Shown: positions 6,792-60,157 of the stretch, in pieces | Numbering within the stretch: the stretch's first letter is position 1 | Layout: each line of letters begins with the position of its first letter | Assembly: GCA_964437465.1 (NCBI GenBank) | Contig: CAYTGI010000001.1 | Coordinates: 5,614 to 69,613, forward strand | Direction of reading: 5' to 3' | Source of the DNA: an uncultured Candidatus Saccharibacteria bacterium | Lineage (GTDB): Bacteria > Patescibacteriota > Dojkabacteria > J137 | DNA length: 64,000 nucleotides | Position numbers and translations under genes: made by a program | Notes under the pieces: model-generated | Seen by the model: only the letters and a program-made list of their open reading frames with translations | Database searches by the model: none | What the model was told of the DNA's origin: nothing

Positions 6792-7859
6792 ATGGTAGAA
6801 GTAGTAAAACACATAGAAACAACTATAGATAGTAATCTTAAAAAACTTGAACAAGATATTTATGATTTAGGTATAGATGCAAGTCCGCTTTCTAATTTCA
6901 TTGATTCTAAAATATTTTGTGATTTTAACGATCTCTCAAAACAAGGAATAATATCAATGTTGAGAACAGGTTTAGAAAAAGGGAGTATTAAAGAAGTCAT
7001 GGATGTTATTTTTAATCCTCAAGAACCAAGTCAAGAGAGGTTAGAAATCTATAAGAGAAGGCATAGGGAAATTTATGAGCAGAGAGCTATTGAGCTGGCT
7101 GACATGATAATTGATGGACATGAAACTGTCATTTTAAGAAGTGGAATGTACGGTGGAAAATCTACCTTGGCTACAGCTACTGAGAAAGAATTGAAAAAAA
7201 GGGGATTTACTTCCTCCGTTCTTATAGCAGGTATTTTGGGAGATGATTTTACTACTGCTAGAGCTTACGAAGCTGATGAAGGAGTTTTGCCAGCAGAAAT
7301 GGTTTTACCAGATACGATTGAAAACATTAAGTTTAAGATTCTAGAAGATAGAGGAGATAACGAAAATCATGTTGTGTATTTTGATGAATTTTCGTTTGTA
7401 GATGAAGGGACTGTTAGAGAAATAGTGAATTTTTGTAGTGAGGAAGGTATTAAATTAATTATGGCAGGTTTAGATGCTGATTATCTAGGTCGTGAACTTC
7501 CTACGATGTCTAGGTTTCGTAAGGAATGCACTCATGTTGAAGAGTGTTTTTCTTTTACGATGAATATGGATTATGACTCAGTTGAAAATGGTGAACCTAT
7601 AGGAACACATACAGCTAGATATGTGCGTCTTCCAGAAGGTGGCTATGTGTTAGATGTAGCGAGTCTTCCTCTAGAAGTTTCGAAAGAAAAACCATACATA
7701 CTTTATATTCCTGTAGCAAAGCAACATCATATATCGGGTATTCTTGAAGGGCATCCAGTTCTTGAATGGATAAATTCATATCCAGAGTTTATACCACAGG
7801 AAAGAATGCAACGAGTTTTTCAATTTAATTTGGAGTTACCCTATCAAGAAGTGGCTTAA
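6792..7859 (+). CDS. Thymidine kinase-like protein with an N-terminal extension of about 110 aa
   Basis: TK motifs from about residue 110: P-loop SGMYGGKSTLA, YFDEFSFV (compare IDEAQFF), MAGLDADYLGRELP (compare AGLD.DFRGEPF); C-terminal Cys ribbon is degenerate. Confidence 0.55.
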   Translation: MVEVVKHIETTIDSNLKKLEQDIYDLGIDASPLSNFIDSKIFCDFNDLSKQGIISMLRTGLEKGSIKEVMDVIFNPQEPSQERLEIYKRRHREIYEQRAIELADMIIDGHETVILRSGMYGGKSTLATATEKELKKRGFTSSVLIAGILGDDFTTARAYEADEGVLPAEMVLPDTIENIKFKILEDRGDNENHVVYFDEFSFVDEGTVREIVNFCSEEGIKLIMAGLDADYLGRELPTMSRFRKECTHVEECFSFTMNMDYDSVENGEPIGTHTARYVRLPEGGYVLDVASLPLEVSKEKPYILYIPVAKQHHISGILEGHPVLEWINSYPEFIPQERMQRVFQFNLELPYQEVA

Positions 7860-8197
7860 GCCTCGATTGGATCTTCTGGGGGTAAAACTCTAGTAATAAT
7901 ATTCCAATAACGGTTGTTCTCCTCATTTATCGTTATAGTATAAACTGTTTGGATTCGGCTAGAAGTCAAGTTGAAAAAATCCATTAAATGACTATTTATT
8001 TGAGCAGACAGCTCGTCTCTTGAGCTTATGTTTGGAATTTTTTTAAGAATGATTTCAATCTTGGGGTTACTATCATGAGGATCATAACGGTCTGATATCT
8101 CACTTTTAATTTCATCAACAATTCTATCTATCCAAGTTACTTCTAAATATTGCTCGTTGAAATCATCATAATTATCATCGTTGAAATCGTCACTCAT
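7856..8197 (-). CDS. Hypothetical small highly acidic protein (113 aa)
   Basis: N-terminus MSDDFNDDNYDDFNEQ; net charge about -14; no known motif. Confidence 0.45.
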   Translation of the reverse strand: MSDDFNDDNYDDFNEQYLEVTWIDRIVDEIKSEISDRYDPHDSNPKIEIILKKIPNISSRDELSAQINSHLMDFFNLTSSRIQTVYTITINEENNRYWNIITRVLPPEDPIEA

Positions 8198-8754
8198 TTT
8201 TTCTTTTTATTCTCAGAATCTTTAAATACTTTACTACCAACGGCATCCATCTGTCCTTGGTACTTACTTTTTCTCTCAGGTGCTCCGTATGGACTTTCAG
8301 CAGGGAATCCCATTCTTCCAAAAACTAACTGACAGATTCTTCTTCCAGCTTCAAGTTTAATCGGAACAGAGTTTGCGTTATACAGCTCTAAAGTTATTCT
8401 ACCCTTAAATCCAGGGTCAACCCATCCAGCGTTTTGAATAAATAGTCCCATTCTCCCAATTGAACTTCGTCCCTCAACAAAAGCAATTAAGTTATCTGGT
8501 AATTCAATATATTCCATAGTTGTTCCGAGAAGGAATGTATGGGGCTCAATTATAATTTCTGTTTTTGTAATTTTTTTATATTTAACTGGATTATTTAAAT
8601 CTATAACTTTCGATCTTCTATTATCTACAATTAAGAAATTATCTCCTAATCTACAGTCAATTGAGGCAGGTTGAATAGATTCATCTGTAATTGGTCTACA
8701 GACTAATTCGCCTGAAAGCAGCATTTTTTTAATTGTTCCGTCAGATAAAATCAT
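8194..8754 (-). CDS. dcd: dCTP deaminase
   Basis: 186 aa; N-terminus MILSDGTIKKM..., and a glycine-rich NAGWVDPGFKG motif of the dCTP deaminase/dUTPase fold. Confidence 0.9.
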   Translation of the reverse strand: MILSDGTIKKMLLSGELVCRPITDESIQPASIDCRLGDNFLIVDNRRSKVIDLNNPVKYKKITKTEIIIEPHTFLLGTTMEYIELPDNLIAFVEGRSSIGRMGLFIQNAGWVDPGFKGRITLELYNANSVPIKLEAGRRICQLVFGRMGFPAESPYGAPERKSKYQGQMDAVGSKVFKDSENKKKK

Positions 8755-8755
8755 A

Positions 8756-9373
8756 TCAATCTATTGATTCTAAATAATCTGTAATTGGTTTAGAAAGGTT
8801 CCTCGTCAATTCTAAGAATTTACCAATATTTCCCTCAGCATTTTCGTCATCTATTATGGTTGGAACCTCATCAACGAAAATGAGTATTCGCCTATCTTCA
8901 GTTTCTCCCTCTTCTAGTTCAACACCACTATCTCCAACTTGTTTACTCCCTAAATATATTTTATGTGTGTATTGTTTTTCATCTTCGAATGTGATCGCTA
9001 CTAAAACATGACCTTCTTCTGCGTTTTCAAAGGACCGAGTAACGTCAAACCCTACTTTTGCAAGCTCACCTTTTAATTGAGTTCTAAAAGTTTCATCTAA
9101 AAAGTATTCGTAGACATTTGTGTCAACCTCAATAAAAGGTTCGAAAATGTATGCACCATCAGTCAAGTTAGGAACAAAAACAACACTAACTCCATCATCA
9201 ATGCTAAATTCAAACTTTGGTGGTAAAACTAGCCTTCCATCAATATCAATAGGTACCATTGTGAGTGGTTGATCTTCTAAAAATCTTCTCATTTCTTCTA
9301 GAATATCTTGTGCAGTTATTTGTTCATTTGAAGGATCGAAATCATCATCGTAATTGTGTTTTTGATCAGACAT
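8756..9373 (-). CDS. Hypothetical acidic protein (205 aa)
   Basis: N-terminus MSDQKHNYDDDFDPSNEQ resembles that of the 113-aa acidic protein; no known domain. Confidence 0.45.
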   Translation of the reverse strand: MSDQKHNYDDDFDPSNEQITAQDILEEMRRFLEDQPLTMVPIDIDGRLVLPPKFEFSIDDGVSVVFVPNLTDGAYIFEPFIEVDTNVYEYFLDETFRTQLKGELAKVGFDVTRSFENAEEGHVLVAITFEDEKQYTHKIYLGSKQVGDSGVELEEGETEDRRILIFVDEVPTIIDDENAEGNIGKFLELTRNLSKPITDYLESID

Positions 9374-9458
9374 TCTAGTATTTCTAAATTAGCTGAATTT
9401 TATCACGTATTTTTAAAATCACTTTGATTTTTTTAGATTAGAAAAGTAGTATAAAAAT

Positions 9459-10286
9459 ATGCATGACGAAACTTATCTTAAACAATTAAAATTCGTTTTA
9501 GAAAACGGATCTAGGAGAGAAAATCGAACGGGTGTAGATACTTTTGGTGTATTCGGACTTCAAGCTAGGTATGATCTTGAAAAGGGTTTTCCGGCATTAA
9601 CTACAAAAAAACTTTTTTTTAAGTCAGTAAAAGCAGAACTACTTTGGTTCTTAGAAGGAAGTAATGATTATAAAAGATTAAATGAATTAGGTTCTAAAAT
9701 ATGGGATGCAAACGCTGAAGCTGATTATTGGAAACCTAAGGCTAAATTTGAAGGAGATGTTGGTAGAGTATATGGTGTGCAGTGGAGGTCATGGAACGGT
9801 CCTGATGATAAAGTTATTGACCAGATAGCTAATGCAATTGAAAATATAAAAACAGATCCAGGAAATAGAAGAATAATTGTTAGTGCATGGAATCCAGGTG
9901 AACTAGACCAAATGGCTTTGCCTCCCTGTCACATTATTTTTCAGTTTTATGTTCAAGGTGATGAGCTTTCTCTTCAAATGTACCAAAGAAGTGCCGATAT
10001 GTTTTTAGGAGTTCCTTTTAACATTGCTTCCTATTCATTACTGTTATCCATGATTGCACATGTTACAGGTTTGAAAGCTAAAGAATTTATTCATGTTCTA
10101 GGAGATGCTCACATTTATGAAAACCACATCGACCAGGTAAAAGATCAGCTTGAGCGAGATCCGTATGATCCTCCTAAGTTATGGTTAAATCCAGATGTGA
10201 GTGATATTGATTCCTTCACAATGAAAGATATTAAGCTTCAGGATTATAAGTATCATCCACCTATTAAAGCTCCAATGGCTGTTTAA
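9459..10286 (+). CDS. thyA: Thymidylate synthase (canonical ThyA)
   Basis: RTGVDT, LPPCHIIFQFYV with the catalytic Cys, and QRSADMFLGVPFNIASYSLL. Confidence 0.95.
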   Translation: MHDETYLKQLKFVLENGSRRENRTGVDTFGVFGLQARYDLEKGFPALTTKKLFFKSVKAELLWFLEGSNDYKRLNELGSKIWDANAEADYWKPKAKFEGDVGRVYGVQWRSWNGPDDKVIDQIANAIENIKTDPGNRRIIVSAWNPGELDQMALPPCHIIFQFYVQGDELSLQMYQRSADMFLGVPFNIASYSLLLSMIAHVTGLKAKEFIHVLGDAHIYENHIDQVKDQLERDPYDPPKLWLNPDVSDIDSFTMKDIKLQDYKYHPPIKAPMAV

Positions 10287-10288
10287 AC

Positions 10289-10786
10289 ATGGTTTCAATT
10301 ATTGCAGCAATGACAGAAAAGGATAGAGTTATAGGAAAAGATCAGGATTTACCTTGGAGGTTACCAGAGGATTTAAAACGGTTTAAAAAACTCACAATAA
10401 ATCATCCGGTCATAATGGGAAGAAAGAGTTATGAAGCAATTGGTCATGCATTACCTAAAAGAGATAACATTGTTTTAACGAGACAAGAAGAATACCATCT
10501 CAATGATGCTAAGGTATTTAATACATTAGAAAAAGCTGTTAATTATGCAAAGGAAATTGATTCTGAAATATTTATTATTGGAGGAGAGGAGATTTTTAGA
10601 GAAGCATTAAATCAAGGTATTGTAGATAAGATGTATTTAACAATAATTAAACAAGACTTTGATGGAGATACTTTTTTTCCTGAGATTGACGAATCTAATT
10701 GGAAAATAAGTAGAGATGGTGAGCAAGAAAGTAAAAATAATATACTGTTTGAGTACGTAACTTATTCTAAATCTAGTCAGTTATAA
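10289..10786 (+). CDS. folA: Dihydrofolate reductase
   Basis: 165 aa; IAAMTEKDRVIGKDQDLPW and PVIMGRKSYEAIG motifs; immediately follows thyA. Confidence 0.9.
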   Translation: MVSIIAAMTEKDRVIGKDQDLPWRLPEDLKRFKKLTINHPVIMGRKSYEAIGHALPKRDNIVLTRQEEYHLNDAKVFNTLEKAVNYAKEIDSEIFIIGGEEIFREALNQGIVDKMYLTIIKQDFDGDTFFPEIDESNWKISRDGEQESKNNILFEYVTYSKSSQL

Positions 10787-11370: not shown

Positions 11371-12519
11371 ATGAAGTTAGTATTTAATTCAGGATCTTCA
11401 AGCATTAAAGTAGCATTGTTTAAAGATAAAGAAAGAACGTTTGATCTTCATTTTAAAAACTATTCAGGGGAATCGTTTAGTTTAATAGTAAATAATCAGG
11501 AAGAAGTTGAAATTAATGAGAGTGACTACTCAGACTCATTTAACAAGACAATTGAAATATTGATAAATCATGGAGCTTTAGATTCTAAAGACAATTTAGA
11601 TTTCATAGCTCATAGAGTAGTACATGGTGGAGAAGAATACGATCAACCAGTTGAGATTACGGAAGAAACTATCCAGACGATCGAATCTTTTAACGACTTT
11701 GCTCCACTTCATAATCCGCTTGCTTTAGAAATAATAAAAAAAATTGCTAAGACTGATCCTAATTTGAAGCAATATGCAGTTTTTGATACTGCATTTCATA
11801 CAACCATACCAAAAAAAAATTTCTTATATGGATTACCATATGGATATTATGAAAACATAAAAGTAAGAAAGTTTGGCTTTCATGGAATTTCTTACGAATA
11901 TATTGTAAATAATGTTCCTGACTTCCCTTCTAAAGCGATAATTTGTCATCTAGGTTCTGGTTCAAGTGTTTGTGCTGTTAAGGATAAACAAAGCTTCGCA
12001 ACTTCTTTTGGATTTTCACCTGAAGAAAATTTAATTATGGCAACAAGATCGGGAGAGATAGATTACAGTGCAGTAATGTATCTTAAAAATAAATTAGCTT
12101 TGACAGATAAAGATATAACAACACTTATTAACAAGGAAAGTGGATTGCTAGGTCTTTCTGGATATACAAATAACATGGTTCAGTTGATTGAGGATTATGA
12201 TTCTAATGATAGAGCTAAGCTTGCTATAGACATGTATGTAGATAAAGTAGTTGAGTTTATAAGTAGTTTTTACGTAAAGCTTGGTGGATGTGATTTATTA
12301 GTTTTCACAGGAGGCATTGGAAGTGGTTCGGACTTTGTTAGAAAGAAAATTGGAGAGAAAATAAGAATTATAGGTCTAGGGATAGATGATACAAAAAACA
12401 ATGGCCAAATTAATATCGAAGGAAGTCTCGATATTTCAATAAATGATAATAGAGTACTAGCCGTTAAGACTAATGAAGAGCTTCATATTATCAATCAGGT
12501 AAGTAATACCATTGATTAA
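11371..12519 (+). CDS. ackA: Acetate kinase
   Basis: VFNSGSSSIKVALF, FIAHRVVHGG, KFGFHGISY and HLGSGSSVCAV motifs. Confidence 0.85.
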   Translation: MKLVFNSGSSSIKVALFKDKERTFDLHFKNYSGESFSLIVNNQEEVEINESDYSDSFNKTIEILINHGALDSKDNLDFIAHRVVHGGEEYDQPVEITEETIQTIESFNDFAPLHNPLALEIIKKIAKTDPNLKQYAVFDTAFHTTIPKKNFLYGLPYGYYENIKVRKFGFHGISYEYIVNNVPDFPSKAIICHLGSGSSVCAVKDKQSFATSFGFSPEENLIMATRSGEIDYSAVMYLKNKLALTDKDITTLINKESGLLGLSGYTNNMVQLIEDYDSNDRAKLAIDMYVDKVVEFISSFYVKLGGCDLLVFTGGIGSGSDFVRKKIGEKIRIIGLGIDDTKNNGQINIEGSLDISINDNRVLAVKTNEELHIINQVSNTID

Positions 12520-16292: not shown

Positions 16293-17474
16293 GTGAAAAC
16301 AACATACTTTTACAAAGATCTTCCATATATTGAAGATTTTAAAGATATAACTAATGAGCGACTTTTTAAAGATGCTCCAGCCGACTGGTACGTTGTTGTG
16401 TCAGATGTACAAGGTTCGACTATTGCAATTGATGAAGGTAGATATCATGACGTTAATTTTGTAGCAGCTTGTGCTACAACAGCAGTTCTAAATATTGATA
16501 AAAATACTGAATTTCCATTTGTTTTTGGAGGTGATGGATCAGCAATCTTAATACCACCAGAATATACTGAAAAAGCATCTGAAGTATTGAAGGATACTCA
16601 AAAATTCGCAAAAAATCATTTTCAACTTCATTTACGTGTTGGATTAGTTCCAGTTATAGATATTCTTAGAAGTCGACACAAAATTAAAATTGTAAAATTA
16701 AAAGTTTCGGATAATTACTTCCAAGCTGTATTTCATGGTGGGGGGTTAGACCATGCTGAATATCTAGTGAAAAACAATCCTAAATATCAAGTTAAAAAAA
16801 TCAAGATAAAGTCTAAAGCTGATTTCTCAGGATTAAAATGTATATGGCAAGATATCCCTAGTAAAAAAGAGGAGATTGTGAGCCTTTTAATAAAAGCTAA
16901 TCCAGTTTATGAGAATGAAACAAAGATTTATAGCGAAGTTATGAAAGAAATTCAGGATATTTATGGTGAAAAAAATGAAAGATTTCCTGTTAAAGAAGGA
17001 TCAATAAGAATTACCTCAAATAATAAAAAAATATATTTAGAATCGTTAATTGAATCTTATCAATATAAGAAAAATTTGAGAGAAACCTTTATAAGAAACT
17101 ATATCTCGAGCGTCAAAGATGCTGTTATTTCATTTTTTAAACGAGGTTGGAATTCATTAACTTTCAGTGCATATAAGAATACTTTCATTAATGCGATAGA
17201 TTCTGAAAAATTTGACGACATGTTAAGAATGGTTATAGCTGGGACATCTGCTCAAAGGCATAGGTTAGTTGGTTATCTTGAAGAAAAGTACCAAAATGGG
17301 GAGTTAGCTTACGGAGTTCACTCAACTTCAAGCGTTCATATGACATGTTTAATAATTGAAAGAAAAGGAAAGCAAGTCCACTTCATAGACGGCTCAAACG
17401 GAGGCTATACTCAAGCTGCTAAGGAGCTAAAGAACAGAGTCAAGTGGCAAAAGATTTATATGCAGACTTATTAG
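16293..17474 (+). CDS. DUF3095-like protein with an N-terminal class III nucleotidyl cyclase-like (palm) domain
   Basis: VVVSDVQGST (compare F.DI.GFT) and FGGDGSAIL (compare IGD...). The two Asp residues are 43 residues apart, close to the 44-residue spacing of the metal-binding Asp pair in class III cyclases. The C-terminal ~240 aa are unknown. Confidence 0.5.
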   Translation: MKTTYFYKDLPYIEDFKDITNERLFKDAPADWYVVVSDVQGSTIAIDEGRYHDVNFVAACATTAVLNIDKNTEFPFVFGGDGSAILIPPEYTEKASEVLKDTQKFAKNHFQLHLRVGLVPVIDILRSRHKIKIVKLKVSDNYFQAVFHGGGLDHAEYLVKNNPKYQVKKIKIKSKADFSGLKCIWQDIPSKKEEIVSLLIKANPVYENETKIYSEVMKEIQDIYGEKNERFPVKEGSIRITSNNKKIYLESLIESYQYKKNLRETFIRNYISSVKDAVISFFKRGWNSLTFSAYKNTFINAIDSEKFDDMLRMVIAGTSAQRHRLVGYLEEKYQNGELAYGVHSTSSVHMTCLIIERKGKQVHFIDGSNGGYTQAAKELKNRVKWQKIYMQTY

Positions 17475-17563: not shown

Positions 17564-18172
17564 ATGAAAAACACATTTAAGGCATATATATCTCTTATAA
17601 TTGTTCTTATAATCGGAGCTATATCATACTTGTCTGCAGTTTTATTATACACAACACCAGTAAAAGCTACATCTACTCCAATTACTATTCAAAATCCAAG
17701 TAGTGGAGCTAATCTAAACGTTCTGCCTTACAAAGATGTTATTGTGCAAACTTGTACAGGAAACTGGCTTTATATTGACTCAATTGGAAAAAGAATAGAA
17801 TTATCCTATGAAACAGTTACATCTTGGAAATACGAGAGTGATCCAGCGATTTTGAGCGAGACCTTAAACAATAAGAATACCGTGCTTTTAGGACATAACT
17901 ACTGTGAAGGAGGGAATTGTTATAAACCAACAACTGACTTTGGAATGATAATTAATGTAAAACAAGGAGATAAAGCTATGGCATGTGTTGATGGAAACCT
18001 ATACAAAGGTGAAATATTAGTATCAAGACAGATTGATGAAACTGCAACATATATCCTTAGTGATTGGTTAAACCAACCTACAATTACAGCATTTACCTGT
18101 TACGGAGAATGTAAAGATGAAAAATGTGAGACAGTTAGGAGTAGATGGGTAATTGCTTTCAATAAATTCTAA
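17564..18172 (+). CDS. Sortase-family transpeptidase
   Basis: N-terminal TM anchor; His motif LLGHN, Cys motif TAFTCY (compare TLITC), Arg motif VRSRWVIAF; His-Cys spacing 68 and Cys-Arg spacing 13, matching S. aureus SrtA (64 and 13). Confidence 0.7.
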   Translation: MKNTFKAYISLIIVLIIGAISYLSAVLLYTTPVKATSTPITIQNPSSGANLNVLPYKDVIVQTCTGNWLYIDSIGKRIELSYETVTSWKYESDPAILSETLNNKNTVLLGHNYCEGGNCYKPTTDFGMIINVKQGDKAMACVDGNLYKGEILVSRQIDETATYILSDWLNQPTITAFTCYGECKDEKCETVRSRWVIAFNKF

Positions 18173-20049: not shown

Positions 20050-21378
20050 ATGGAAGATTCTGTTATATTAACGATTTTTGGTGCCACTGGTGATTTAGTA
20101 AGAAAGAAAATTATTCCTGCTTTATACACTTTATACGAAGAAGAAAAACTACCTTCTAAAATTAAAATTTTAGGGTTCGCAAGAAGAGATTTTACAGGAG
20201 GAAAATATAATAATTTTATTAATGAATCACTTCACAAGATTTTAAAGGTTGATGATCCAAATCCTGGATTTTATGATCTTTTTGAGTACGTTCAGGGTGA
20301 TTTAGATAATGATGAAGGATTTAAAAAACTTGAGGAAGCAATTAAGAAACATGACGAGATTTGTAGAGAAAACTGCGTAAAACTTTTTTACTACTCAATT
20401 CAACAAAGCTTTTATGAACCTGTAACTGAACAAATTGCTAAATTTGATATGCCTAAAGATAACTTTAGATTACTAATTGAGAAACCATACGGGCACGATA
20501 CCCAGTCTGCGTCTGAGCTTGATCAGAAAATGAAACATCATTTTGAAGAAGATCAGCTTTACAGAATTGATCACTACATGCACAAAAAAATTGTGAGACA
20601 GATCTTAGATTTCCGATTTGAGAATTCAATTATTAAATCAGTTTGGAAACCATCTGAGATTAATAAGGTTGTTATCTCAACAAAAGAAGATTTTGGTGCA
20701 GAAGGAAGAGGGGCGTTTTACGATGCCCTAGGCGCATTAAAAGATGTTGGTCAGAATCATCTTCTTGCTATTGCCTCACTAATTCTAATGGAAGAGTTCA
20801 AAGATGAGAGTTCTGAACATTTCATTGAAAGAAGAGCAAAAGCACTTCAAAGCTTTAAACCTTTTGAAAACGATGAACAGATAAAAGAAAATACTTTCAG
20901 AGCTCAATATCAAGGTTACAAAGAGATAGAAAATGTAGATCCAGATTCAACTAGGGAAACTTATTTCAAAGTTAAACTCTTTTCATCAAAAGAAGGTTGG
21001 GGAGAAATTCCATTTATTTTAGAAGCAGGAAAAAAACTTGATAAACATATGAAAGAGGTTAAGGTTTATTTTGAAACGAATGTAATCTTTTTTGAATTTC
21101 ATCCAAACGATCAAATTTGTATTGGGCTACATTCTAATGAAGAAAAAGAAACATGTTTATACAAAATGGAAAATGAGTCTCGAAAATATCAATATGTTTC
21201 TGAGTACGCATTAGTTATTGAGGAAGCAATCCAAGGTAAAAGAGATTTCTTTGTTAGCATTAATGAGGTACTTGCTCAGTGGAGTATTGTTGATTCTATC
21301 GAAGATGGGTGGATGCGAGATTTGGTTCCTTTAGTTGAGTATGAGCAAGGAACTACACCGAGAAGTGATATTAATTAA
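20050..21378 (+). CDS. zwf: Glucose-6-phosphate 1-dehydrogenase
   Basis: IFGATGDLVRKKIIPALY, EKPYGHD and RIDHYMHKKIV motifs. Confidence 0.9.
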   Translation: MEDSVILTIFGATGDLVRKKIIPALYTLYEEEKLPSKIKILGFARRDFTGGKYNNFINESLHKILKVDDPNPGFYDLFEYVQGDLDNDEGFKKLEEAIKKHDEICRENCVKLFYYSIQQSFYEPVTEQIAKFDMPKDNFRLLIEKPYGHDTQSASELDQKMKHHFEEDQLYRIDHYMHKKIVRQILDFRFENSIIKSVWKPSEINKVVISTKEDFGAEGRGAFYDALGALKDVGQNHLLAIASLILMEEFKDESSEHFIERRAKALQSFKPFENDEQIKENTFRAQYQGYKEIENVDPDSTRETYFKVKLFSSKEGWGEIPFILEAGKKLDKHMKEVKVYFETNVIFFEFHPNDQICIGLHSNEEKETCLYKMENESRKYQYVSEYALVIEEAIQGKRDFFVSINEVLAQWSIVDSIEDGWMRDLVPLVEYEQGTTPRSDIN

Positions 21379-21482
21379 GAGTCAAATCCTAAATTCTAAT
21401 ATCTAAATTCTAAAAACGAACTAATATTGCATCATATTTTTCTTGCAACTAGCGACTATAATAGTTATTAATTAAATATTTT

Positions 21483-22391
21483 ATGAAAAAGCAAATTGGA
21501 ATAATAGGTTTAGGTAAGATGGGAAAAGGTGTAGCTCTTAATCTTGCTGATGATGGATGGGAAGTTATAGCCTACAACAGAACTGAATCAGTTACTAAAG
21601 AAGTTGAAGAACAATCAGAAAATATAACAGGAGCTTATAGTTATGAAGAATTAGTTAATCAGCTTGATGGTCCTAGAGTGTTATGGATAATGGTTCCTGC
21701 TGGAGATCCTACAAGACAAGTTGTTAGTGATGTTTTACCTTTACTTGAAGAAGAAGATATTATTATAGATGCTGCTAATTCCTACTTTAAGGATACTTTA
21801 GAAATGTCTAAAAGGATTACTGAAAAAGGGGTTAAATTCATGGATTGTGGAGTTTCAGGAGGCCCAAGTGGTGCGAGAAATGGAGCTTGTTTAATGATTG
21901 GAGGAGATCAGGAAACATATAAATATTTAGAAGAATTATTTCAAGATGTTGCTGATGACGAAGCTTATCAATTTTTCCCTGGAATTGCTGCGGGGCATTT
22001 CGTCAAAATGGTACATAACGGAATTGAATATGGAATGATGCAAGCAATTGCTGAAGGTTTTGATGTGATGAAAAATTCAGAGTTTGACCTTGATTTAAAA
22101 GATGTTGCAAGAATCTATAGTAAACGAAGTGTAATCGAGTCTAGACTTATTGACTGGATGCTTAAAGGTTTTGAAACTTATGGTGAAGATCTTGATGAAG
22201 TGTCAGGAAGCGCCTCTCATAGTGGTGAAGGGGAATGGACTATAAAAACAGCTAAAGAAATGGGCATACCTGTAAATGTAATTGAAGATTCGCTAAATGC
22301 GAGAATTAAATCTCAGGAAAACCCTAGCTATCAAGGCAAAATTATTTCAGCATTAAGAAATATGTTTGGAGGGCATTCTATCGATAATTAA
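21483..22391 (+). CDS. 6-phosphogluconate dehydrogenase, short (YqeC/Gnd-like) form
   Basis: NAD-binding IGIIGLGKMGKGVALNL, then GHFVKMVHNGIEYGMMQAIAEG. Confidence 0.85.
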   Translation: MKKQIGIIGLGKMGKGVALNLADDGWEVIAYNRTESVTKEVEEQSENITGAYSYEELVNQLDGPRVLWIMVPAGDPTRQVVSDVLPLLEEEDIIIDAANSYFKDTLEMSKRITEKGVKFMDCGVSGGPSGARNGACLMIGGDQETYKYLEELFQDVADDEAYQFFPGIAAGHFVKMVHNGIEYGMMQAIAEGFDVMKNSEFDLDLKDVARIYSKRSVIESRLIDWMLKGFETYGEDLDEVSGSASHSGEGEWTIKTAKEMGIPVNVIEDSLNARIKSQENPSYQGKIISALRNMFGGHSIDN

Positions 22392-22523
22392 AAAATAATA
22401 ATTATTAATTAAAAATTTTTAGATAAAGTCTGATAATGTAGTTGAGCTCTATCATTATTAATTCTTAATCATTAATTAATAAACTCCTTGTTTTCAATTT
22501 TAGTTTTAACTAAACTATAGTAT

Positions 22524-23432
22524 ATGATCTTTTCAAATCGACCAGAAAACTTTAAATCAGGTATTTTTTTAGATAGTGGGGACCCAAATGAGACTAGAAT
22601 GGTTCTTGATGAGCTTGGCTTCATTGATGGTCAAACGACTAATCCATCTTTAGTAGCTAGAAATCCAGAGATTGCTGCAAAATTTGATAACGGTGAGAAG
22701 CTAACTTCTGATGAGCTTTTAGCTGAATATAGAAAGATCGTACAAGAAATATCAGGGCTAATACCGGGAAGATCTGTTTCGATTGAAGTATATGCTGACG
22801 CTGAAACTTCTGCTGAAGAAATGATCTCACAAGCAGAAGAAATGTATACATGGATTGATTCTGCTCACATAAAGTTACCTACTACACCTGGAGGATTGAA
22901 AGCAGCTAGATATTTAACTGAAAAAGATTTTCGGGTGAACATGACATTAGTGTTTAAGCAAGAGCAAGCGGCTGCAGTTCATAGTGCAACTACAGGAGTA
23001 AAAAGAGGAAATGTTTTTTTATCTCCATTTATCGGAAGACTTGATGATTTAGGGCTTAGAGGAATGGACGTAGCAGGAAATATCTTAAAGATGTATAGAG
23101 ATCAAGGCTCTCACGTAGAAGTACTAGCTGCAAGTATAAGGAGTTTAGATCATTTGTTGTTCTTACTTTTTATGCAAACAGATATTATTACTGTTCCATA
23201 TAAAGTACTGAAAAAGTGGATAAGAATAGGAGCACCATACCCAGATAGAAATGATATGGATGTTTACAAAAGAGTTGATGAAATGGAATTCTTTTTTGGA
23301 GAAGATTTACAACAAATTCCTTTTGAAAGAATCGATATGGATAATGATTTTGGTAGCTACAATATTCAACATAAATTAACTGAAGTTGGACTACAAAGAT
23401 TTGCAGAAGATTGGAATAAATTAATTACATAG
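22524..23432 (+). CDS. tal: Transaldolase
   Basis: FLDSGDPNE and GQTTNPSL motifs. Confidence 0.8.
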   Translation: MIFSNRPENFKSGIFLDSGDPNETRMVLDELGFIDGQTTNPSLVARNPEIAAKFDNGEKLTSDELLAEYRKIVQEISGLIPGRSVSIEVYADAETSAEEMISQAEEMYTWIDSAHIKLPTTPGGLKAARYLTEKDFRVNMTLVFKQEQAAAVHSATTGVKRGNVFLSPFIGRLDDLGLRGMDVAGNILKMYRDQGSHVEVLAASIRSLDHLLFLLFMQTDIITVPYKVLKKWIRIGAPYPDRNDMDVYKRVDEMEFFFGEDLQQIPFERIDMDNDFGSYNIQHKLTEVGLQRFAEDWNKLIT

Positions 23433-23434
23433 AA

Positions 23435-23464
23435 TGTAGGGACAAACCATGGTTTGTCCCTACA
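23435..23464. other. Perfect 30-bp palindrome (15+15, no loop) between tal and transketolase
   Basis: tgtagggacaaacca / tggtttgtccctaca are exact reverse complements; begins 3 nt after the tal stop; no downstream T-tract. Confidence 0.6.
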
Positions 23465-23472
23465 GCCATAAT

Positions 23473-24336
23473 ATGAAGCACACTGGGCAAGAGTTAATCC
23501 AAAAAGCATACGAAATAAGAAAAGACATAATTGATATGTTGTTGGAAGCTGGCTCTGGACATTCAGCTGGACCTTTAGGAATGGCTGATATATTCACTGC
23601 TTTGTATTTTGAAGTATTAAATCATGATCCAAATAATCCAGGAATGCCAGAACGTGACAAAGTAGTTTTATCAAATGGTCATATTTGTCCAGTTTGGTAC
23701 GCTACACTTGCACATGCAGGGTACTTTCCAAGAGAAGAGCTAATGACTTTAAGAAAGATTGATTCACGATTACAAGGTCATCCAAATAGATTAGATACTC
23801 CAGGTGTTGAAAATTCTAGTGGTCCATTAGGACAAGGTTTTTCACAAGCGATAGGTATGGCATTAGCTGATATGTTAGAAGGTAGAAAATCAACAACCTA
23901 CGTTTTACTTGGAGATGGAGAATTAAACGAGGGTCAGTGTTGGGAGGCGTTTATGTTTGCTGGTAATTATCCACTGCACCATTTAACCGCAATTATAGAT
24001 AGAAATAATATTCAAATTGATGGTCATACAGAAAATGTTATGAGATTGGAGCCACTAAAAGAAAAAATTGAATCATTTAATTGGCACGTTTTAGAAATTG
24101 ATGGACATAATATGGAAGCGATTGTTGATGCTTGCAATCATGCTAAATCAGTTTGGGAAAGGCCTACAGCAATTATCGCGAATACAATTCCTGGAAAAGG
24201 TGTTGATTTTATGGAATGGAAACCTGAGTGGCATGGAAAACCACCAAAAGAAGACGAAGCAGAAGAAGCAGATAAGGAATTACTTGATACATTAAATTAT
24301 TTAAGAACATTGAGAGGGAATATTGAGTTTGAATAA
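23473..24336 (+). CDS. Transketolase, N-terminal (ThDP-binding) subunit
   Basis: GHSAGPLGMADIF and GDGELNEGQCWEA motifs. The ORF track starts at 23449 inside the palindrome; the ATG at 23473 (MKHTGQE...) is more plausible. Confidence 0.85.
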   Translation: MKHTGQELIQKAYEIRKDIIDMLLEAGSGHSAGPLGMADIFTALYFEVLNHDPNNPGMPERDKVVLSNGHICPVWYATLAHAGYFPREELMTLRKIDSRLQGHPNRLDTPGVENSSGPLGQGFSQAIGMALADMLEGRKSTTYVLLGDGELNEGQCWEAFMFAGNYPLHHLTAIIDRNNIQIDGHTENVMRLEPLKEKIESFNWHVLEIDGHNMEAIVDACNHAKSVWERPTAIIANTIPGKGVDFMEWKPEWHGKPPKEDEAEEADKELLDTLNYLRTLRGNIEFE

Positions 24337-24343
24337 CTCAATT

Positions 24344-24377
24344 TCCTCCCCCACCCCATCCTGCTAGGAGGGGAGCT
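24344..24377. repeat. GC-rich palindromic repeat unit (core CCTGCTAGGAGGGG)
   Basis: cctcccccaccccatcctgctaggaggggagc, a GC island in an AT-rich intergenic region; same family as the units at 26755 and 27241. Confidence 0.6.
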
Positions 24378-24397
24378 TATATAACAAAAAACTAAAA

Positions 24398-25390
24398 ATG
24401 ATACCGGACATGCGATTACAAAATGAGTGGTGGAATCCAGATAATCTGGAGAATAAACCTACGAGAGATGGGTATGGAGATTGTCTAGTTGAGCTCGGAC
24501 GAGAAAATAAGGATATAGTAGCTTTAAGTGCGGACTTAACAGAATCTACAAGAACTCATTACTTTGCTGAAGAATTTCCTGATCGTTTTTTTCAAACAGG
24601 TATTGCTGAACAGAACATGATGGGGATTGCTGCAGGACTTGCTTTAAATGGAAAAATTCCCTTCGCTGCAAGTTACGCAGTTTTTTCTCCTGGAAGAAAT
24701 TGGGATCAGTTTAGAGTAAGTGTTTGCTATTCAAAAGCTAATGTAAAAATAATTGGAGGTCATGCGGGGCTTTCAGTTGGACCAGATGGAGCTACTCACC
24801 AGGCACTTGAAGATATCGCAATCACAAGAGTATTACCAAACTTAACAGTTATTGTTCCAGCTGATTATGAACAGGCAAAAAAAGCAACTAGAGAAGCAGC
24901 TTTTATGGACGGACCGGTTTATATTAGAGTAAGTAGAGATAAAACTCCAAACTTTACATCTGTCGATACTCCGTTTCAAATTGGTAAAGGACAAGTTCTG
25001 TATAGTGGGGATGATGTAACTATTTTCGCTACTGGTTTAATGGTTCATAAAGCTCTACTCGCAGCAAGAGAACTCCAAGATGAAGGTGTAAGTTGTGAGG
25101 TAATTAATCTTCATACAATAAAACCAATAGATATAGATGCTGTAATAGCTTCAGTTCTTAAAACTAAAGCAGCAGTAACAGTAGAAGAACATCAGGTTAC
25201 TGGAGGTTTAGGAAGTGCAGTTTCTGAAGTGATCTCACAACAACACCCAGTTCCAATTGAAATGGTTGGGGTTAAGGATACTTTTGGGGAATCAGGAAAG
25301 ACGAATGAGCTTTTTGTAAAATACGGACTTGATGTGGAAAATATAAAAAATGCTGCAAAGACTTCAATTGCTCGAAAAGAAAATTCTTAG
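24398..25390 (+). CDS. Transketolase, C-terminal (pyrimidine-binding) subunit
   Basis: FQTGIAEQNMMGIAAGLA and GPDGATHQALEDIA motifs. Confidence 0.9.
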   Translation: MIPDMRLQNEWWNPDNLENKPTRDGYGDCLVELGRENKDIVALSADLTESTRTHYFAEEFPDRFFQTGIAEQNMMGIAAGLALNGKIPFAASYAVFSPGRNWDQFRVSVCYSKANVKIIGGHAGLSVGPDGATHQALEDIAITRVLPNLTVIVPADYEQAKKATREAAFMDGPVYIRVSRDKTPNFTSVDTPFQIGKGQVLYSGDDVTIFATGLMVHKALLAARELQDEGVSCEVINLHTIKPIDIDAVIASVLKTKAAVTVEEHQVTGGLGSAVSEVISQQHPVPIEMVGVKDTFGESGKTNELFVKYGLDVENIKNAAKTSIARKENS

Positions 25391-25399
25391 ATAAAAACT

Positions 25400-26725
25400 A
25401 TGGATAAACCTATTTTTAATTTCAAAGGCTCAATTGAGTTTGATGAAAGGGTAGTTGTTGCTGAAGGTAATAATCTAAGGAAATATATAGAAGTTCTTCA
25501 AGATATTGTTGCTTCAAAAGAATATTTAGAAGATGAGGCTTCATTATCCTTACCTGGAGATGAGGGTATCTTACATAGTTCTCTTCACTTAGCTAATGAG
25601 TATAAAGCAGAAAACCTTAAGTATGTTTTCGTTGTTGGGATTGGGGGTTCAAACTTAGGTACACAAGCGATTTACACTGCTTTAAGGGGGCAGTTTGATT
25701 ATTTAGAGCATACATTTCCAAAAATCATTTTTATAGATGCTGTGTCCTATAAAAATTTAAATCAGATTAACCGAGTTATTGATGATGAGGGAATTAATGC
25801 TGAAGATTTTGTAATTTTTGCGATCTCAAAATCTGGAGGTACTTCAGAAACTATCGCTAACACAAATTTTCTAATTCAAGTTTTAGATCAATATTTAGAA
25901 ATTGAACCAGTAAGGGATAGGCTAATTGTTATTACTGACGAGGGATCAAAATTCTGGGAAAGAGCGGAGAAAGAAAATATTGATAAATTACCAATTCCTA
26001 AAAAAGTAGGTGGAAGGTATTCAGTTTTTTCTAATGTAGGAATTGCTCCATTGAGCTTTATTTTTGGTGAAGACCTCAAAGATTTGATCCATGGAGCTAG
26101 AGTTGCGTTAGAAGATTGTATACAATTTGAGTTTGAATCTAATCCAGCTTTACAATCTGCTTTAGTTACTAATCTTTATCTTCAAAAAGGAACAAGAATT
26201 AATAATAATTTTTTCTTTGATCCAAATTTAGAATATGTTGGAAAATGGTATAGGCAGTTAATGGGAGAGAGTATTGGTAAAGAGAGAAGTATTAAGAATA
26301 AAATTGTTCATGCTGGAATAACTCCAATTGTGAGTATTGGTTCAACTGATCTACACTCAATGGCGCAACTTTATATTGGCGGACCAAATGATAAGTTAAC
26401 TAACTTCGTTTACGTTGATGAAGAAGATGATTTGAAGGTAAGTGAGTACGCTATAACAAAAGATTTAGTTGATGATTTAGAAGGCAAGTCTGCTTATGAA
26501 ATTAATAAAGCAATATATGAAGGAGTTAAAAAGGCATATATAAAAAACGAAAGACCATTTGTAGAGGTAGTTTTCCTTAGGGTAAGTTTATTTACACTAG
26601 GTTACTATCTTCAATTTAAAATGGTTGAGATGATGTATTTAGCAAATTTAATGAATTTAAATGCATTCGATCAGCCTAATGTTGAGGATTATAAGGAGGA
26701 GACTAGAAAATTGTTGAAAGGGTGA
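25400..26725 (+). CDS. pgi: Glucose-6-phosphate isomerase
   Basis: FVVGIGGSNLGTQAIY and ISKSGGTSET motifs. Confidence 0.85.
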   Translation: MDKPIFNFKGSIEFDERVVVAEGNNLRKYIEVLQDIVASKEYLEDEASLSLPGDEGILHSSLHLANEYKAENLKYVFVVGIGGSNLGTQAIYTALRGQFDYLEHTFPKIIFIDAVSYKNLNQINRVIDDEGINAEDFVIFAISKSGGTSETIANTNFLIQVLDQYLEIEPVRDRLIVITDEGSKFWERAEKENIDKLPIPKKVGGRYSVFSNVGIAPLSFIFGEDLKDLIHGARVALEDCIQFEFESNPALQSALVTNLYLQKGTRINNNFFFDPNLEYVGKWYRQLMGESIGKERSIKNKIVHAGITPIVSIGSTDLHSMAQLYIGGPNDKLTNFVYVDEEDDLKVSEYAITKDLVDDLEGKSAYEINKAIYEGVKKAYIKNERPFVEVVFLRVSLFTLGYYLQFKMVEMMYLANLMNLNAFDQPNVEDYKEETRKLLKG

Positions 26726-26754
26726 AGTCTATAAGATTCCAACGAAGCTAATAG

Positions 26755-26830
26755 TCTACCTCCCCTAACCCCTCCTGCTAGGAGGGGGAAGTTGAGTTTC
26801 CTCCCCTAGCAGGGGAGGACTAAGGTGGGG
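26755..26830. repeat. Cluster of GC-rich palindromic repeat units; the first 36 bp form a direct repeat with 27241-27276
   Basis: tctacctcccctaacccctcctgctaggaggggga ... cctcccctagcaggggagg ... taaggtgggg. Confidence 0.65.
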
Positions 26831-26880
26831 TAGAATGTTTTACTACACTTCTTTGTTTTACTTCCCCAATTTTTATCTTT

Positions 26881-27267
26881 ATGATTCCTTATTACAATAA
26901 AAGTAAACTGAATTTCTCCAAGAAAAAGAGGAAAGATGAAACCTATGCTGAAATGAAACTTTGGTCAGAATTAAAAGGAAAAAAATTACTGGGATATAAA
27001 TTTAGAAGACAATATGTAATAGATAAATACATAGTTGATTTTTATTGTATTGAACTAAAATTAATTATTGAGGTAGATGGGGCAAGTCATGATGAAGAAA
27101 AGTATGAGTATGATAAGAAAAGAGAAAATGAACTAAGAAGGTTAGGGAACACAGTATTAAGATTTACTGAATATGAAGTTAGGAGTGATATTGATAATGT
27201 TTTGGAAACTATTGTTTATTTAATAGAAAAGTTTGAACAATCTACCTCCCCTAACCCCTCCTGCTAG
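26881..27267 (+). CDS. DUF559-type (Vsr-like endonuclease fold) small protein
   Basis: 128 aa; YKFRRQYVIDKYIVDFYC...IEVDGASHDE...RENELRRLGNTVLRF; its last 8 codons (STSPNPSC) are encoded by the GC-rich repeat. Confidence 0.65.
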   Translation: MIPYYNKSKLNFSKKKRKDETYAEMKLWSELKGKKLLGYKFRRQYVIDKYIVDFYCIELKLIIEVDGASHDEEKYEYDKKRENELRRLGNTVLRFTEYEVRSDIDNVLETIVYLIEKFEQSTSPNPSC

Positions 27268-27395
27268 GAGGGGGACATGACTTTCATTAAATTACTCCCC
27301 TGCTAGGGAGGAAATATACTCACTTTATAAGTTCATGTTCAAATTGCTAGGAGGGGAAGCAATAATCTACCGAATACTCTCCTGCTAGAAGGGGG
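27241..27395. repeat. Cluster of four GC-rich palindromic repeat units; first 36 bp identical to 26755-26790
   Basis: cccctcctgctaggaggggg; ctcccctgctagggagg; ttgctaggagggg; ctcctgctagaaggggg. Confidence 0.65.
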
Positions 27396-27484
27396 ACGTA
27401 ATGTAGTCTAGTACTTTCTTAATAAATCCTTGTAAACTATCTCTATCCTCTTTAGAATGAAAATATATTATTAAAAATCTTCTT

Positions 27485-29911
27485 ATGGAACAGCACGTCT
27501 TAGATTGGTTTAAAAAGTACCACAGGTTAACAAATTACCTAGGAGCATCAATGCTTTATCTAAAAGATAACTTCTTTTTAGAAGAGGAATTAAAACCTGA
27601 GCACATAAAAAATAGAATTCTAGGACACTGGGGAACTGTTCCTGGGTTGAACTTTATGTACGCTGGTCTTAACTATTTAATTAAACAAACTGGACAGGAG
27701 ATGATGTTTATAGGAGGTCCTGGTCACGGAGCTCCGGCTGTTTTAGCTAATGTTTATGTAGAAGGGACACTCGAAGAATATTATCCTAACGTAGCAAGAA
27801 ATCGAGAAGGTTTTGGACAATTATTAAAACTATTTAGCTGGCCAAAAGGGTTTCCTTCTCATACTTATCCTGGAGTACCTGGATCCGTTCATGAGGGCGG
27901 AGAGTTAGGATACTCTTTAGGGACAGCCTTTGGAACAGTATTTGATAATCCACATTTAATGACAGCATGTGTAATTGGAGATGGAGAGGCTGAGACAGGT
28001 CCGTTAGCAGCTAGCTGGCATTCAAATAAATTTATAGACCCAGCAAGTACTGGTGTTGTTTTACCAATTTTACATCTAAACGGTTATAGAATTTCAGGAC
28101 CGACCATTTTTGGAACCATGGATAACGAAGAAGTTTTAAGTTACTTTAGAGGTTTAGGATATAATCCGATTTTAGTTGATCAATATAACTCAGAAGATAT
28201 TTATAACGATTACCTTCAAGCTCTTCATGATGCATACGATAGTATTCAGTATGTAAGGACTGAATGGCAAAATACTGGAAAGAAACCTAACTGGCCAATG
28301 TTAGTTGTTAGAACAATGAAAGGTTGGACTGGTCCTGAATACTTTAAAGGAAAGAAAATTGAAGATCATAATAACTCTCACGGAATTCCTTTAGAAAAAT
28401 GTAAAACAGATATGGATCAGCTAAAAGCAGTTGAAGAATGGTTAAGAAGTTATAACGTAAATGAACTGTTAAATGAAGATAAAACAATAAAAGAGGAGCT
28501 TTATGAATTTGTTCCTGAAGGAGATTTAAGAATGGGTAAGAATAAGCATGCAGTTGGCGGAAATTTGAGGAAAGAGTTAGTTCTTCCTGACTTAGATAAG
28601 TTAAGTATTAAGTTTGATAAGCCAGGATTTGTAGCTGAAAGTTCAATGGAAGTTATGGGTAAGTATTACGAAGAAGTTTTTAAAAATAATGAACAGGAAC
28701 AGAACTTTAGGATTTTTTCTCCAGATGAATCAGAATCAAACAAACTTGGAGAAATGTTTGATATTACTGGAAGAAAGTATGTTTGGCCAACAAGAGACTG
28801 CGATGAATGCATTTCACCAAATGGCCGAGTTATGGAGCTATTAAGTGAGCATGTTCTTCAAGAGTGGATGCAGGGGTATGTTCTTACTGGAAGACACGGG
28901 GTATTAATCTCTTATGAAGCATTCTTAGGAATCATTACAACAATGATTGATCAACATATAAAGTTCATAAAGATTTCAGAGGAGTTTGAATGGAGAAAGC
29001 CTGTCCCTAGTCTGAACTATGTTGCCTCAAGCACAGGCTGGAGGCAGGATCATAATGGATTCTCACACCAGAATCCAACATTGATAAATACATTACTTAC
29101 AAAACAAGCTGACTTTGTAAGTGTATATTTCCCAGCTGATGTAAATACACTTCTTGCGACCCTTGATGATTGTCTACTTAGAACTAATAATGTAAATCTA
29201 ATAATTTCAGGTAAGAGAGATTTACCTCAATGGTTGAGTATGGATGAAGCTCGTGAGCATGTTAAAAACGGAATTAGTAGATGGGACTTCGTAGGCAATG
29301 TAAAAAATGATCATGAAAATACTCCAGATGTAGTATTAGCTTCTTGCGGGGACTACCAAACTCAAGAGACAATCGCTGCAGCACAAATACTAAGAGAGGA
29401 TCTGCCTGAACTTACATTTCAATATGTAAACGTAAATGAAATTACGAGATTAGGTTTAGGAGATGAACATAATCCATTAATGACGACGCAAGATTATGAA
29501 AAATACTTCACTCATGATAGAGATGTTATTTTCAATTTTCATGGTTATCCAGATGCAATAAAGCAACTTACCTGGGGAAGAAAGATATCAGAACAGTTAG
29601 TTATTCTAGGTTATATAGAAAAGGGAACAACAACAACACCTTTTGATATGCAAGTAGTTAATAAAGCAAGTAGATATCATGTAGCAATGCAAGCAATTCT
29701 TTCTGCTGCTAGATTTAATAATGATGTTGCTGCAAGAGAGGTGGAACTAATAAAAAAGTATACCGAAATTTTAAAGAAGCATTCTGAGTATATAGTTGAG
29801 TATGGGGATGACATGCCAGAAGTTAAGGATTTTAAGTATAAGCTTGGCCAATGCAGTTTTCTAAAATTTTTGAAGGTAGATATGAGTTTGGATTTAATCC
29901 TCCAGTCCTAG
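27485..29911 (+). CDS. xfp: Xylulose-5-phosphate/fructose-6-phosphate phosphoketolase
   Basis: 808 aa; GHWGTVPGLNF and EGGELGYS signatures. Confidence 0.9.
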   Translation: MEQHVLDWFKKYHRLTNYLGASMLYLKDNFFLEEELKPEHIKNRILGHWGTVPGLNFMYAGLNYLIKQTGQEMMFIGGPGHGAPAVLANVYVEGTLEEYYPNVARNREGFGQLLKLFSWPKGFPSHTYPGVPGSVHEGGELGYSLGTAFGTVFDNPHLMTACVIGDGEAETGPLAASWHSNKFIDPASTGVVLPILHLNGYRISGPTIFGTMDNEEVLSYFRGLGYNPILVDQYNSEDIYNDYLQALHDAYDSIQYVRTEWQNTGKKPNWPMLVVRTMKGWTGPEYFKGKKIEDHNNSHGIPLEKCKTDMDQLKAVEEWLRSYNVNELLNEDKTIKEELYEFVPEGDLRMGKNKHAVGGNLRKELVLPDLDKLSIKFDKPGFVAESSMEVMGKYYEEVFKNNEQEQNFRIFSPDESESNKLGEMFDITGRKYVWPTRDCDECISPNGRVMELLSEHVLQEWMQGYVLTGRHGVLISYEAFLGIITTMIDQHIKFIKISEEFEWRKPVPSLNYVASSTGWRQDHNGFSHQNPTLINTLLTKQADFVSVYFPADVNTLLATLDDCLLRTNNVNLIISGKRDLPQWLSMDEAREHVKNGISRWDFVGNVKNDHENTPDVVLASCGDYQTQETIAAAQILREDLPELTFQYVNVNEITRLGLGDEHNPLMTTQDYEKYFTHDRDVIFNFHGYPDAIKQLTWGRKISEQLVILGYIEKGTTTTPFDMQVVNKASRYHVAMQAILSAARFNNDVAAREVELIKKYTEILKKHSEYIVEYGDDMPEVKDFKYKLGQCSFLKFLKVDMSLDLILQS

Positions 29912-30356
29912 CAAAATTTTCATAAAGCTCTAAACTCATCCACTTATAATCAGCGTGGTTATCCTCTAAGTCTCCTGATTCTCTTAAAGTCTTATTGATT
30001 TGGGGTACAACTGGAGCTGTTAAAGTGGCACAGAAAAAGGTCACATCTCTTTCATACTCTAAATTATCAAACTTGAAACAGTAAGCGTATGAATAATCAA
30101 TTTTAATTAGTTCATCAGACTGATAGATGATTTGAGTTTCTTCATAGAGCTCTCTAGAAGCAGCTTTACTAAGAATTTGATCTGTGAGACTATATGCATT
30201 AGAATCTACCTTACCACCAGGGAATTCAAATGCATTAGGATTTTTTGAGTTTTGTCCTTTCTGTAATAGCAACAATAAGTTATTGTAGACTATAATAGTT
30301 CTAACAGTTTGTACTGAATTCATAGTAATAAATACATGAACGAGTTTATCATACAA
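29832..30356 (-). CDS. NUDIX hydrolase
   Basis: Nudix box GGKVDSNAYSLTDQILSKAASRELYEETQI; true start probably the internal Met (MNSVQ); its 3' end overlaps the xfp 3' end. Confidence 0.65.
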   Translation of the reverse strand: MYDKLVHVFITMNSVQTVRTIIVYNNLLLLLQKGQNSKNPNAFEFPGGKVDSNAYSLTDQILSKAASRELYEETQIIYQSDELIKIDYSYAYCFKFDNLEYERDVTFFCATLTAPVVPQINKTLRESGDLEDNHADYKWMSLELYENFARTGGLNPNSYLPSKILENCIGQAYT

Positions 30357-41391: not shown

Positions 41392-41667
41392 ATGAGGAAA
41401 GAGCTTGAAAGAAAATTGAGAGATAAAAAACTTAAAGTTGCTCCTGTTGATCAGGAAACATCGGAACTTATCAAAGAGCTAGCGAAGCTAACCGATGAAT
41501 ATCCATCAGATATAATTAAAGCAGCGATATTAATGCTATCAAAATCTCTAGGACATCAGGTAGTTTTAAGAGACCCTGATTCTGACTGGGAGTTAATTAT
41601 TAATGGTTTTAGGAGTTATAAAAGTAAATACAAGTTAAATCCAGGAAGTAATGAGCGATCAAGATAA
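41392..41667 (+). CDS. Hypothetical protein (91 aa)
   Basis: Open frame only. Confidence 0.35.
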   Translation: MRKELERKLRDKKLKVAPVDQETSELIKELAKLTDEYPSDIIKAAILMLSKSLGHQVVLRDPDSDWELIINGFRSYKSKYKLNPGSNERSR

Positions 41668-60156: not shown

Positions 60157-60157
60157 T

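Follow-up and report, generated by a model that had tools for sequence, protein, structure and literature searches.

Closest described systems

Class III nucleotidyl cyclases are recognised by three hallmark motifs (F-x-D-I-x-G-F-T, x-G-D and R-[IV]-G), and a base-specifying residue pair sets their substrate, Lys/Asp for ATP and Glu/Cys for GTP. The base-specifying Lys (K938 in AC2, K334 in human soluble adenylyl cyclase, sAC) precedes the final residue of the beta2-beta3 hairpin by four positions, and the beta6-alpha4 region of AC2 bears Asp1018, Asn1025 and Arg1029. There are systems in which two cyclase-homology domains in one chain make up a pseudo-heterodimer, namely the membrane adenylyl cyclases with their C1-C2 arrangement, human sAC and the Pseudomonas aeruginosa protein PaPycC (PDB entry 6YII), which belongs to the clade A PycC proteins with two consecutive cyclase domains (PMC11224242). 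Here we describe a protein predicted to share this architecture, the product of a DUF3095 gene in a 64,000-nucleotide stretch (the window) of contig CAYTGI010000001.1 from an uncultured bacterium of the Dojkabacteria. By predicted structure and residue conservation, the DUF3095 family can be placed as a divergent, class III-like cyclase of the single-chain C1-C2 type.

The gene has a GTG start and a TAG stop and encodes 393 residues. It is flanked by intergenic DNA on both sides (107 nt upstream and 89 nt downstream), and it is therefore probably its own transcription unit; a promoter and terminator scan around it gave nothing above chance, promoter-like sites being no commoner than in shuffled sequence. 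The protein matches Pfam family PF11294 (DUF3095) along all 378 profile positions, scoring 400.6 bits where 22.2 are required (E 9.7e-120); all 118 scanned relatives match the family as well. It has no match in NCBIfam. An earlier note on this DNA had labelled the protein "DUF3095-like", which was too cautious for a bona fide full-length member of the family.

A predicted tandem cyclase fold

An AlphaFold2 model, computed from a 40-sequence alignment, had a mean predicted local distance difference test score (pLDDT) of 86.6 and a predicted template modelling score (pTM) of 0.85. When structures were searched with this model, the three top matches were 6yii_A (score 15.3, 252 residues aligned), adenylyl cyclase 9 (6r3q_A; 13.9, 242 residues) and human sAC (4clf_A; 12.8, 236 residues). 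Each of these has two cyclase-homology domains per chain, and both DUF3095 domains superpose on them jointly (root-mean-square deviation 3.8-3.9). Single cyclase-homology domains (sGC, CyaC, Cya2, Rv1900c, bPAC, CyaB, AC5 C1, and the cyclic UMP (cUMP) and cyclic CMP (cCMP) synthases) scored 8-9 over 121-144 residues, GGDEF domains about 7.5 and Cas10 6.7-7.9. Since single domains align over at most 144 residues and the tandem proteins over 236-252, both halves of the DUF3095 model are cyclase-like. The top Foldseek matches were the soluble domains of sAC, AC8 and AC9 (E 2e-5 to 4e-4, probability 1.00). On this model, we hold it very probable that DUF3095 has a cyclase-like fold.

The earlier note had proposed a class III cyclase-like core in the N-terminal part and no recognisable fold in the C-terminal ~240 residues. 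The core is borne out by the predicted cyclase fold. The C-terminal part is predicted to be a second palm, as the whole-chain alignments to tandem cyclases indicate, and the C-domain by itself matches Cas10, GGDEF and class III palms structurally. The cyclase interpretation thus stands for the N-terminal core and falls for the foldless C-terminus, as it does for the orphan status and the link to a sortase taken up below. An hhalign comparison of the N-domain with the C-domain detected no internal duplication.

Candidate catalytic residues

Two motifs that the earlier note had picked out, VVVSDVQGST (residues 34-43) and FGGDGSAIL (residues 78-86), contain the candidate metal-binding residues D38 and D81, which are 43 residues apart; the spacing is 44 in AC5 C1 and Rv1625c and 52 in sAC. 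The comparison cyclase sequences were verified against their PDB entries, and their residue roles and numbering follow the class III literature. Conservation was scored in 146 cluster representatives that are 30-41% identical to the window protein, with a mean column identity of 33%. Because D38 and D81 are both kept in 99% of representatives this divergent, the pair is more than chance, and the second Asp on which the proposed core depended is present in the homologues. G80 is invariant, S42 reaches 99%, and T43 and R115 reach 96%; the other best-conserved residues of the N-terminal half are P29, W32, G49, Y51, N55, N67, P75, F78, G79, G82, G149, G151 and K160. The N-domain carries counterparts of the three class III hallmarks, in the form of D38 followed by G-S-T, the hairpin G79-G80-D81 and the strand motif L-R115-V-G. 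Aligned by hhalign with sAC C1, it gave the sole sequence signal to cyclases (probability 39%, E 3e-4), with D38 paired with D47.

The second domain differs. There is no conservation of the residue that ends its beta1, and its hairpin closes with M310 ahead of beta3, so that this domain lacks the metal-binding Asp residues. Its best-conserved positions are G341, D366, G370 and G371 (100%), D303, C352, H363 and A375 (99%) and K306 and K380 (98%), with T351 and Y372 also among them. K306, four residues before M310, would occupy the position of the base-specifying Lys, where the N-domain has V77. In the hhalign register K306 likewise falls in the conserved Lys column, in an alignment that is statistically non-significant. 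If A375-A376-K377 is set on A-S-R1029 of AC2, D366 comes to lie exactly on D1018 (spacing 11 in both); a non-significant hhalign alignment has the same Lys and Arg columns with D366 shifted by two residues. Overall, D366 would be no more than one or two residues away from the place of Asp1018. The spacing from K to D is 60 in DUF3095 and 80 in AC2 C2. Of the substrate-specifying and transition-state residues that the earlier note had suggested looking for, there is a candidate Lys in K306, and no canonical Asn/Arg pair is evident. K380, one helical turn past K377, could substitute for the transition-state Arg. The family as a whole keeps six basic positions (R115, K135 as K or R, K160, R184, K306 and K380), which is consistent with triphosphate binding.

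The segment between the domains is conserved as well, with G180 among its best-conserved residues and R184 at 96-98% (Table 1). C183, C352 and H363 are 99-100% conserved family-wide, are without equivalents in the canonical class III enzymes and, to go by this pattern, could form a metal or redox site. Position 184 sets the window protein apart: of the 246 members outside the clade of the window protein, 98% have Arg there, and every one of the 18 members of that Dojkabacteria-like clade has I, V, M or L (Ile here). This is the sole family position conserved at 95% or more at which the window protein deviates. If R184 contacts the triphosphate, the clade could differ in activity or regulation.

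Table 1. Positions in the window of the DUF3095 gene and of the predicted domains, segments and candidate residues of its product. Secondary-structure elements and hairpin positions were assigned with DSSP on the model.
Feature	Position	Strand	Residues	Remarks
DUF3095 open reading frame	16293-17474	+	1-393	
N-terminal C1-like cyclase-homology (palm) domain, predicted	16365-16787	+	~25-165	beta1 33-40; alpha 42-47 and 51-66; beta2 76-78; beta3 82-87; alpha3 89-110; beta4 113-120 (LRVG motif, R115); beta5 and beta6 132-148; alpha4 151-161
D38, candidate first metal-binding Asp	16404-16406	+	38	near the end of beta1; motif D-V-x-G-S-T
D81, candidate second metal-binding Asp	16533-16535	+	81	last residue of the beta2-beta3 hairpin; motif FGGDG
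Inter-domain segment	16818-16862	+	176-190	ADFSGL-x-C-(R)-W; C183 100% and W185 99% conserved
C183	16839-16841	+	183	
Position 184	16842-16844	+	184	
C-terminal C2-like degenerate palm / cyclase-homology domain, predicted	16848-17471	+	~186-393	beta1 194-202; alpha 209-224; beta2 305-308; beta3 311-317; alpha3 319-334; beta4 338-345; beta 347-350 and 363-367; alpha4 371-392
Helical insertion	16998-17192	+	~236-300	between alpha1 and beta2 of the C-domain; poorly conserved; pLDDT drops to ~54 near residues 281-300
K306	17208-17210	+	306	-4 Lys position
C352	17346-17348	+	352	
H363	17379-17381	+	363	
Conserved motif, beta6-alpha4 region, putative residue equivalence	17379-17432	+	363-380	H363-F-[IV]-D366-G-x-x-G370-G371-Y372-x-x-A375-A-K377-x-x-K380

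Comparison with described cyclases

The best structural match, PaPycC, is a chain of 473 residues that shares 11% sequence identity with the window protein. Unlike it, DUF3095 has no PADLOC match and no adjacent effector with a cyclic nucleoside monophosphate (cNMP) receptor domain, and its C-domain carries a helical insert of ~65 residues as well as the conserved Cys and His residues. Compared with the C1-C2 unit of human sAC (ADCY10; 4CLF), DUF3095 shows no evident equivalents of Asn412 or Arg416, none of the bicarbonate-site residues was identified in it, the whole-chain template modelling scores (TM-scores) are only ~0.3-0.4, and the long C-terminal regulatory region of sAC is missing. From the membrane adenylyl cyclases (AC9, 6R3Q; AC5-C1/AC2-C2, 1AZS/1CJK) DUF3095 differs in being soluble and stand-alone, without membrane domains, without G-protein or forskolin sites and without a match to PF00211.

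Proposed mechanism and alternatives

The metal site would lie in one domain and the base and phosphate contacts in the other, and we therefore propose a composite site for a nucleoside triphosphate (NTP) with two metal ions. Two palm domains in one stand-alone chain would form a pseudo-heterodimer, in which the C1-like domain would supply D38 and D81, the G-S-T phosphate loop and the RVG strand, and the C2-like domain, having lost the aspartates, would supply K306 at the base-recognising position together with D366, H363 and K380. The single active site at the domain interface would bind the NTP and two divalent metal ions; the metal-activated ribose 3'-OH would then attack the alpha-phosphate, pyrophosphate would leave and a cyclic nucleotide would be formed. 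Should K306 and D366 act as the canonical Lys/Asp pair, the substrate would be ATP and the product cAMP, and the pairing hints at ATP as the substrate. From the model and the conserved residues we lean, by a small degree, towards an active NTP-cyclising enzyme of the single-chain tandem type.

Several results weigh against such an enzyme. No PF00211 match to the window protein was found at E ≤1, none of 118 family members matched PF00211 or PF00990 even below threshold (E ≤10), and searches of the PDB with the single protein and with two family profiles found no cyclase. Either domain, compared by hhalign with five PDB-verified cyclase-homology domains, gave probabilities below 1%, which amount to a hint of register. 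In the alignment to sAC, moreover, the FGGD of DUF3095 is set on the FGGD of sAC (residues 89-92) and not on the metal-binding D99. The Foldseek whole-chain TM-scores are only 0.34-0.42, so that the predicted inter-domain geometry differs from that of the solved enzymes. In the C-domain no canonical transition-state Asn is evident, T (T373) or A standing in the aligned column; only ~60% of members have K or R where the Arg aligns (K377); and the putative residue equivalences of this domain depend on the register from DSSP and on alignments that lack statistical significance. The replacement of R184 means that activity may be altered in the clade of the window protein. Finally, no cNMP-binding effector was found among the 50 window open reading frames (ORFs) scanned.

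The 6YII deposition bears the names "class III adenylyl cyclase-like ATP-binding protein" and "transcriptional regulator", so that the fold alone is no proof of cyclase activity. DUF3095 might be a pseudo-cyclase, sensing or regulating without catalysis through a tandem palm that binds ATP or another nucleotide and signals by a conformational change, for which the lack of an evident Asn/Arg transition-state pair and the loss of R184 in the clade of the window protein would also speak. However, both metal-binding Asp residues persist across very divergent members, DUF3095 has neither a fused output domain nor a conserved partner gene to signal through, and the protein in 6YII was later regarded as a Pycsar cyclase (PMC11224242). 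We consider a pseudo-cyclase unlikely.

A nucleotidyltransferase like Cas10, GGDEF or mCpol would share the palm and differ in its chemistry, the 3'-OH of a second nucleotide attacking the alpha-phosphate to give a linear or cyclic di- or oligonucleotide in place of a 3',5'-cNMP. The C-domain does resemble these palms, but their whole-chain scores are much lower than those of the tandem cyclases. The protein has no match to the PF00990 profile and no GG[DE]EF motif, lacks the GGDEF "EF" residues and the I-site, and shows neither an HD domain nor a GGDD palm in a CRISPR type III or defence context. We judge this chemistry improbable too.

That the chain is a generic ferredoxin-like or ACT-like binder of small molecules, with no nucleotide chemistry and a coincidental Asp pair, seems very improbable: structure matches of that kind align over only ~80 residues, against 107-144 for cyclase domains and 236-252 for tandem cyclases, and the conserved residues coincide with the catalytic positions of class III enzymes (the beta1 end, the beta2-beta3 hairpin and, in the second domain, the -4 Lys). 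A Pycsar-type anti-phage cyclase making cUMP or cCMP for an adjacent effector was rejected as barely credible, as neither the DUF3095 protein nor its four neighbours matched a PADLOC model (E ≤1), no effector-like gene is conserved beside DUF3095 in 80 loci, the neighbourhoods consist of housekeeping genes, and in many cyanobacteria the gene keeps a stable chromosomal position by MurJ or SfsA in about one copy.

Beyond the enzyme itself, we tentatively entertain, at somewhat less than even chances, that DUF3095 proteins are widespread, unrecognised single-chain tandem nucleotidyl cyclases that make a second messenger, the Dojkabacteria-type clade being altered in specificity or regulation. The messenger would possibly be non-canonical, because the C2-like domain is unusual (C183, C352, H363) and has no canonical Asn/Arg pair. 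As such cyclases, the family would be too divergent for detection by PF00211.

Family size, spread and significance

The earlier note had also called the protein an orphan, and this does not hold. A search of a 5.8-billion-protein collection clustered at 90% returned 1,185 matches, and a profile search run exhaustively over 1.84 billion cluster representatives at 50% identity found 2,522 clusters at E ≤1e-3, 1,087 of them at E ≤1e-30. Nearly all of the cluster representatives are ~390 residues long with one full-length match, so that there are no domain fusions. With a single genome scanned for each GTDB species, at least 575 loci encoding DUF3095 were found, their hosts being Cyanobacteria, Chloroflexota, Bacteroidota, several proteobacterial classes, Planctomycetota, Spirochaetes, Ignavibacteria and others. 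The closest named relative, at 74% identity, comes from a Candidatus Dojkabacteria metagenome-assembled genome, and many cyanobacterial relatives are ~43% identical. The window gene is unexceptional within this large and uncharacterised bacterial family: literature searches found no paper on DUF3095, PF11294 or IPR021445, those for CL0276 returned only irrelevant papers, and one on cyclases in bacteria of the candidate phyla radiation (CPR) gave nothing informative.

If the proteins are active, a whole family of nucleotide-signal synthases is now annotated as of "unknown function", in many cyanobacteria, in Chloroflexota, Bacteroidota and Proteobacteria and in at least one lineage of the ultra-small, metabolically reduced CPR bacteria, whose signalling repertoires are thought minimal. 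DUF3095 would also offer a clean, soluble, natural model of 390 residues for the asymmetric C1-C2 architecture. For the window itself the finding is modest, given an ordinary family member in an uninformative genomic context.

Genomic context

The window has ~32% GC and carries housekeeping genes. Upstream of DUF3095 are genes for acetate kinase, an RND-type transporter, pterin-4a-carbinolamine dehydratase and a small membrane protein; downstream come a weak sortase-like ORF, small membrane ORFs and then a pentose-phosphate and phosphoketolase cluster. The neighbour that had been read as a sortase (17564-18172, + strand) has a TAFTC motif, an N-terminal hydrophobic segment and weak similarity to PDB entry 5hu4, a "cysteine protease" (E 0.002), but scores only 19.4 bits against Pfam Sortase, below the cut-off of 26.6 (E 9e-4).

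A regulatory link between DUF3095 and sortase or surface proteins, also suggested earlier, found no support. The gene order recurs in the Dojkabacteria relative of 74% identity, in which a further gene lies between DUF3095 and the sortase-like ORF, and is not kept in more distant relatives (neighbourhoods of six homologues compared). When 728 ORFs from 80 loci were clustered, no family occurred beside DUF3095 in more than 11 of the 80; the commonest neighbours were MurJ, in cyanobacteria, and generic response regulators. With no conserved neighbour, the adjacency to the sortase-like ORF carries no functional information.

The downstream cluster (20050-29911, + strand) holds contiguous genes for G6PD, a 6PGD-like dehydrogenase, transaldolase, a transketolase split in two (its N- and C-terminal parts in different ORFs), PGI and the phosphoketolase XFP. 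Together with the nearby acetate kinase gene (11371-12519, + strand) it has the appearance of a phosphoketolase/acetate module for fermentation. A cluster for dCTP deaminase, thymidylate synthase and DHFR (8194-10786) is located upstream of DUF3095, at a distance of about 6 kb. In a 52%-identical relative (locus L004, 3563-5604) these three genes stand directly upstream of DUF3095, with acetate kinase and phosphoketolase nearby, and there is loose regional synteny among these small genomes.

Elsewhere in the window, a RelA/SpoT-family protein (HD_4, RelA_SpoT and TGS domains; 30336-31808, + strand) means that a (p)ppGpp alarmone enzyme is already encoded there. Four consecutive ORFs of 148-216 residues (39121-41339, - strand) and one further ORF (41651-42079, + strand) have no Pfam match, and adjoining them is a pair for a UmuD-like S24 peptidase and a UmuC/Y-family polymerase (42086-44766). 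A 355-residue ORF (6792-7859, + strand) has a partial, weak thymidine-kinase match (residues 116-240, E 4e-6); it is about twice the usual thymidine-kinase length, and its N-terminal ~115 residues lie outside the match. A type IV pilus or type II secretion-like group (57797-61884, + strand) comprises a prepilin whose N-terminus bears a methylation motif, an ATPase (T2SSE) and a platform protein (T2SSF), followed by a 642-residue protein with an LVIVD repeat.
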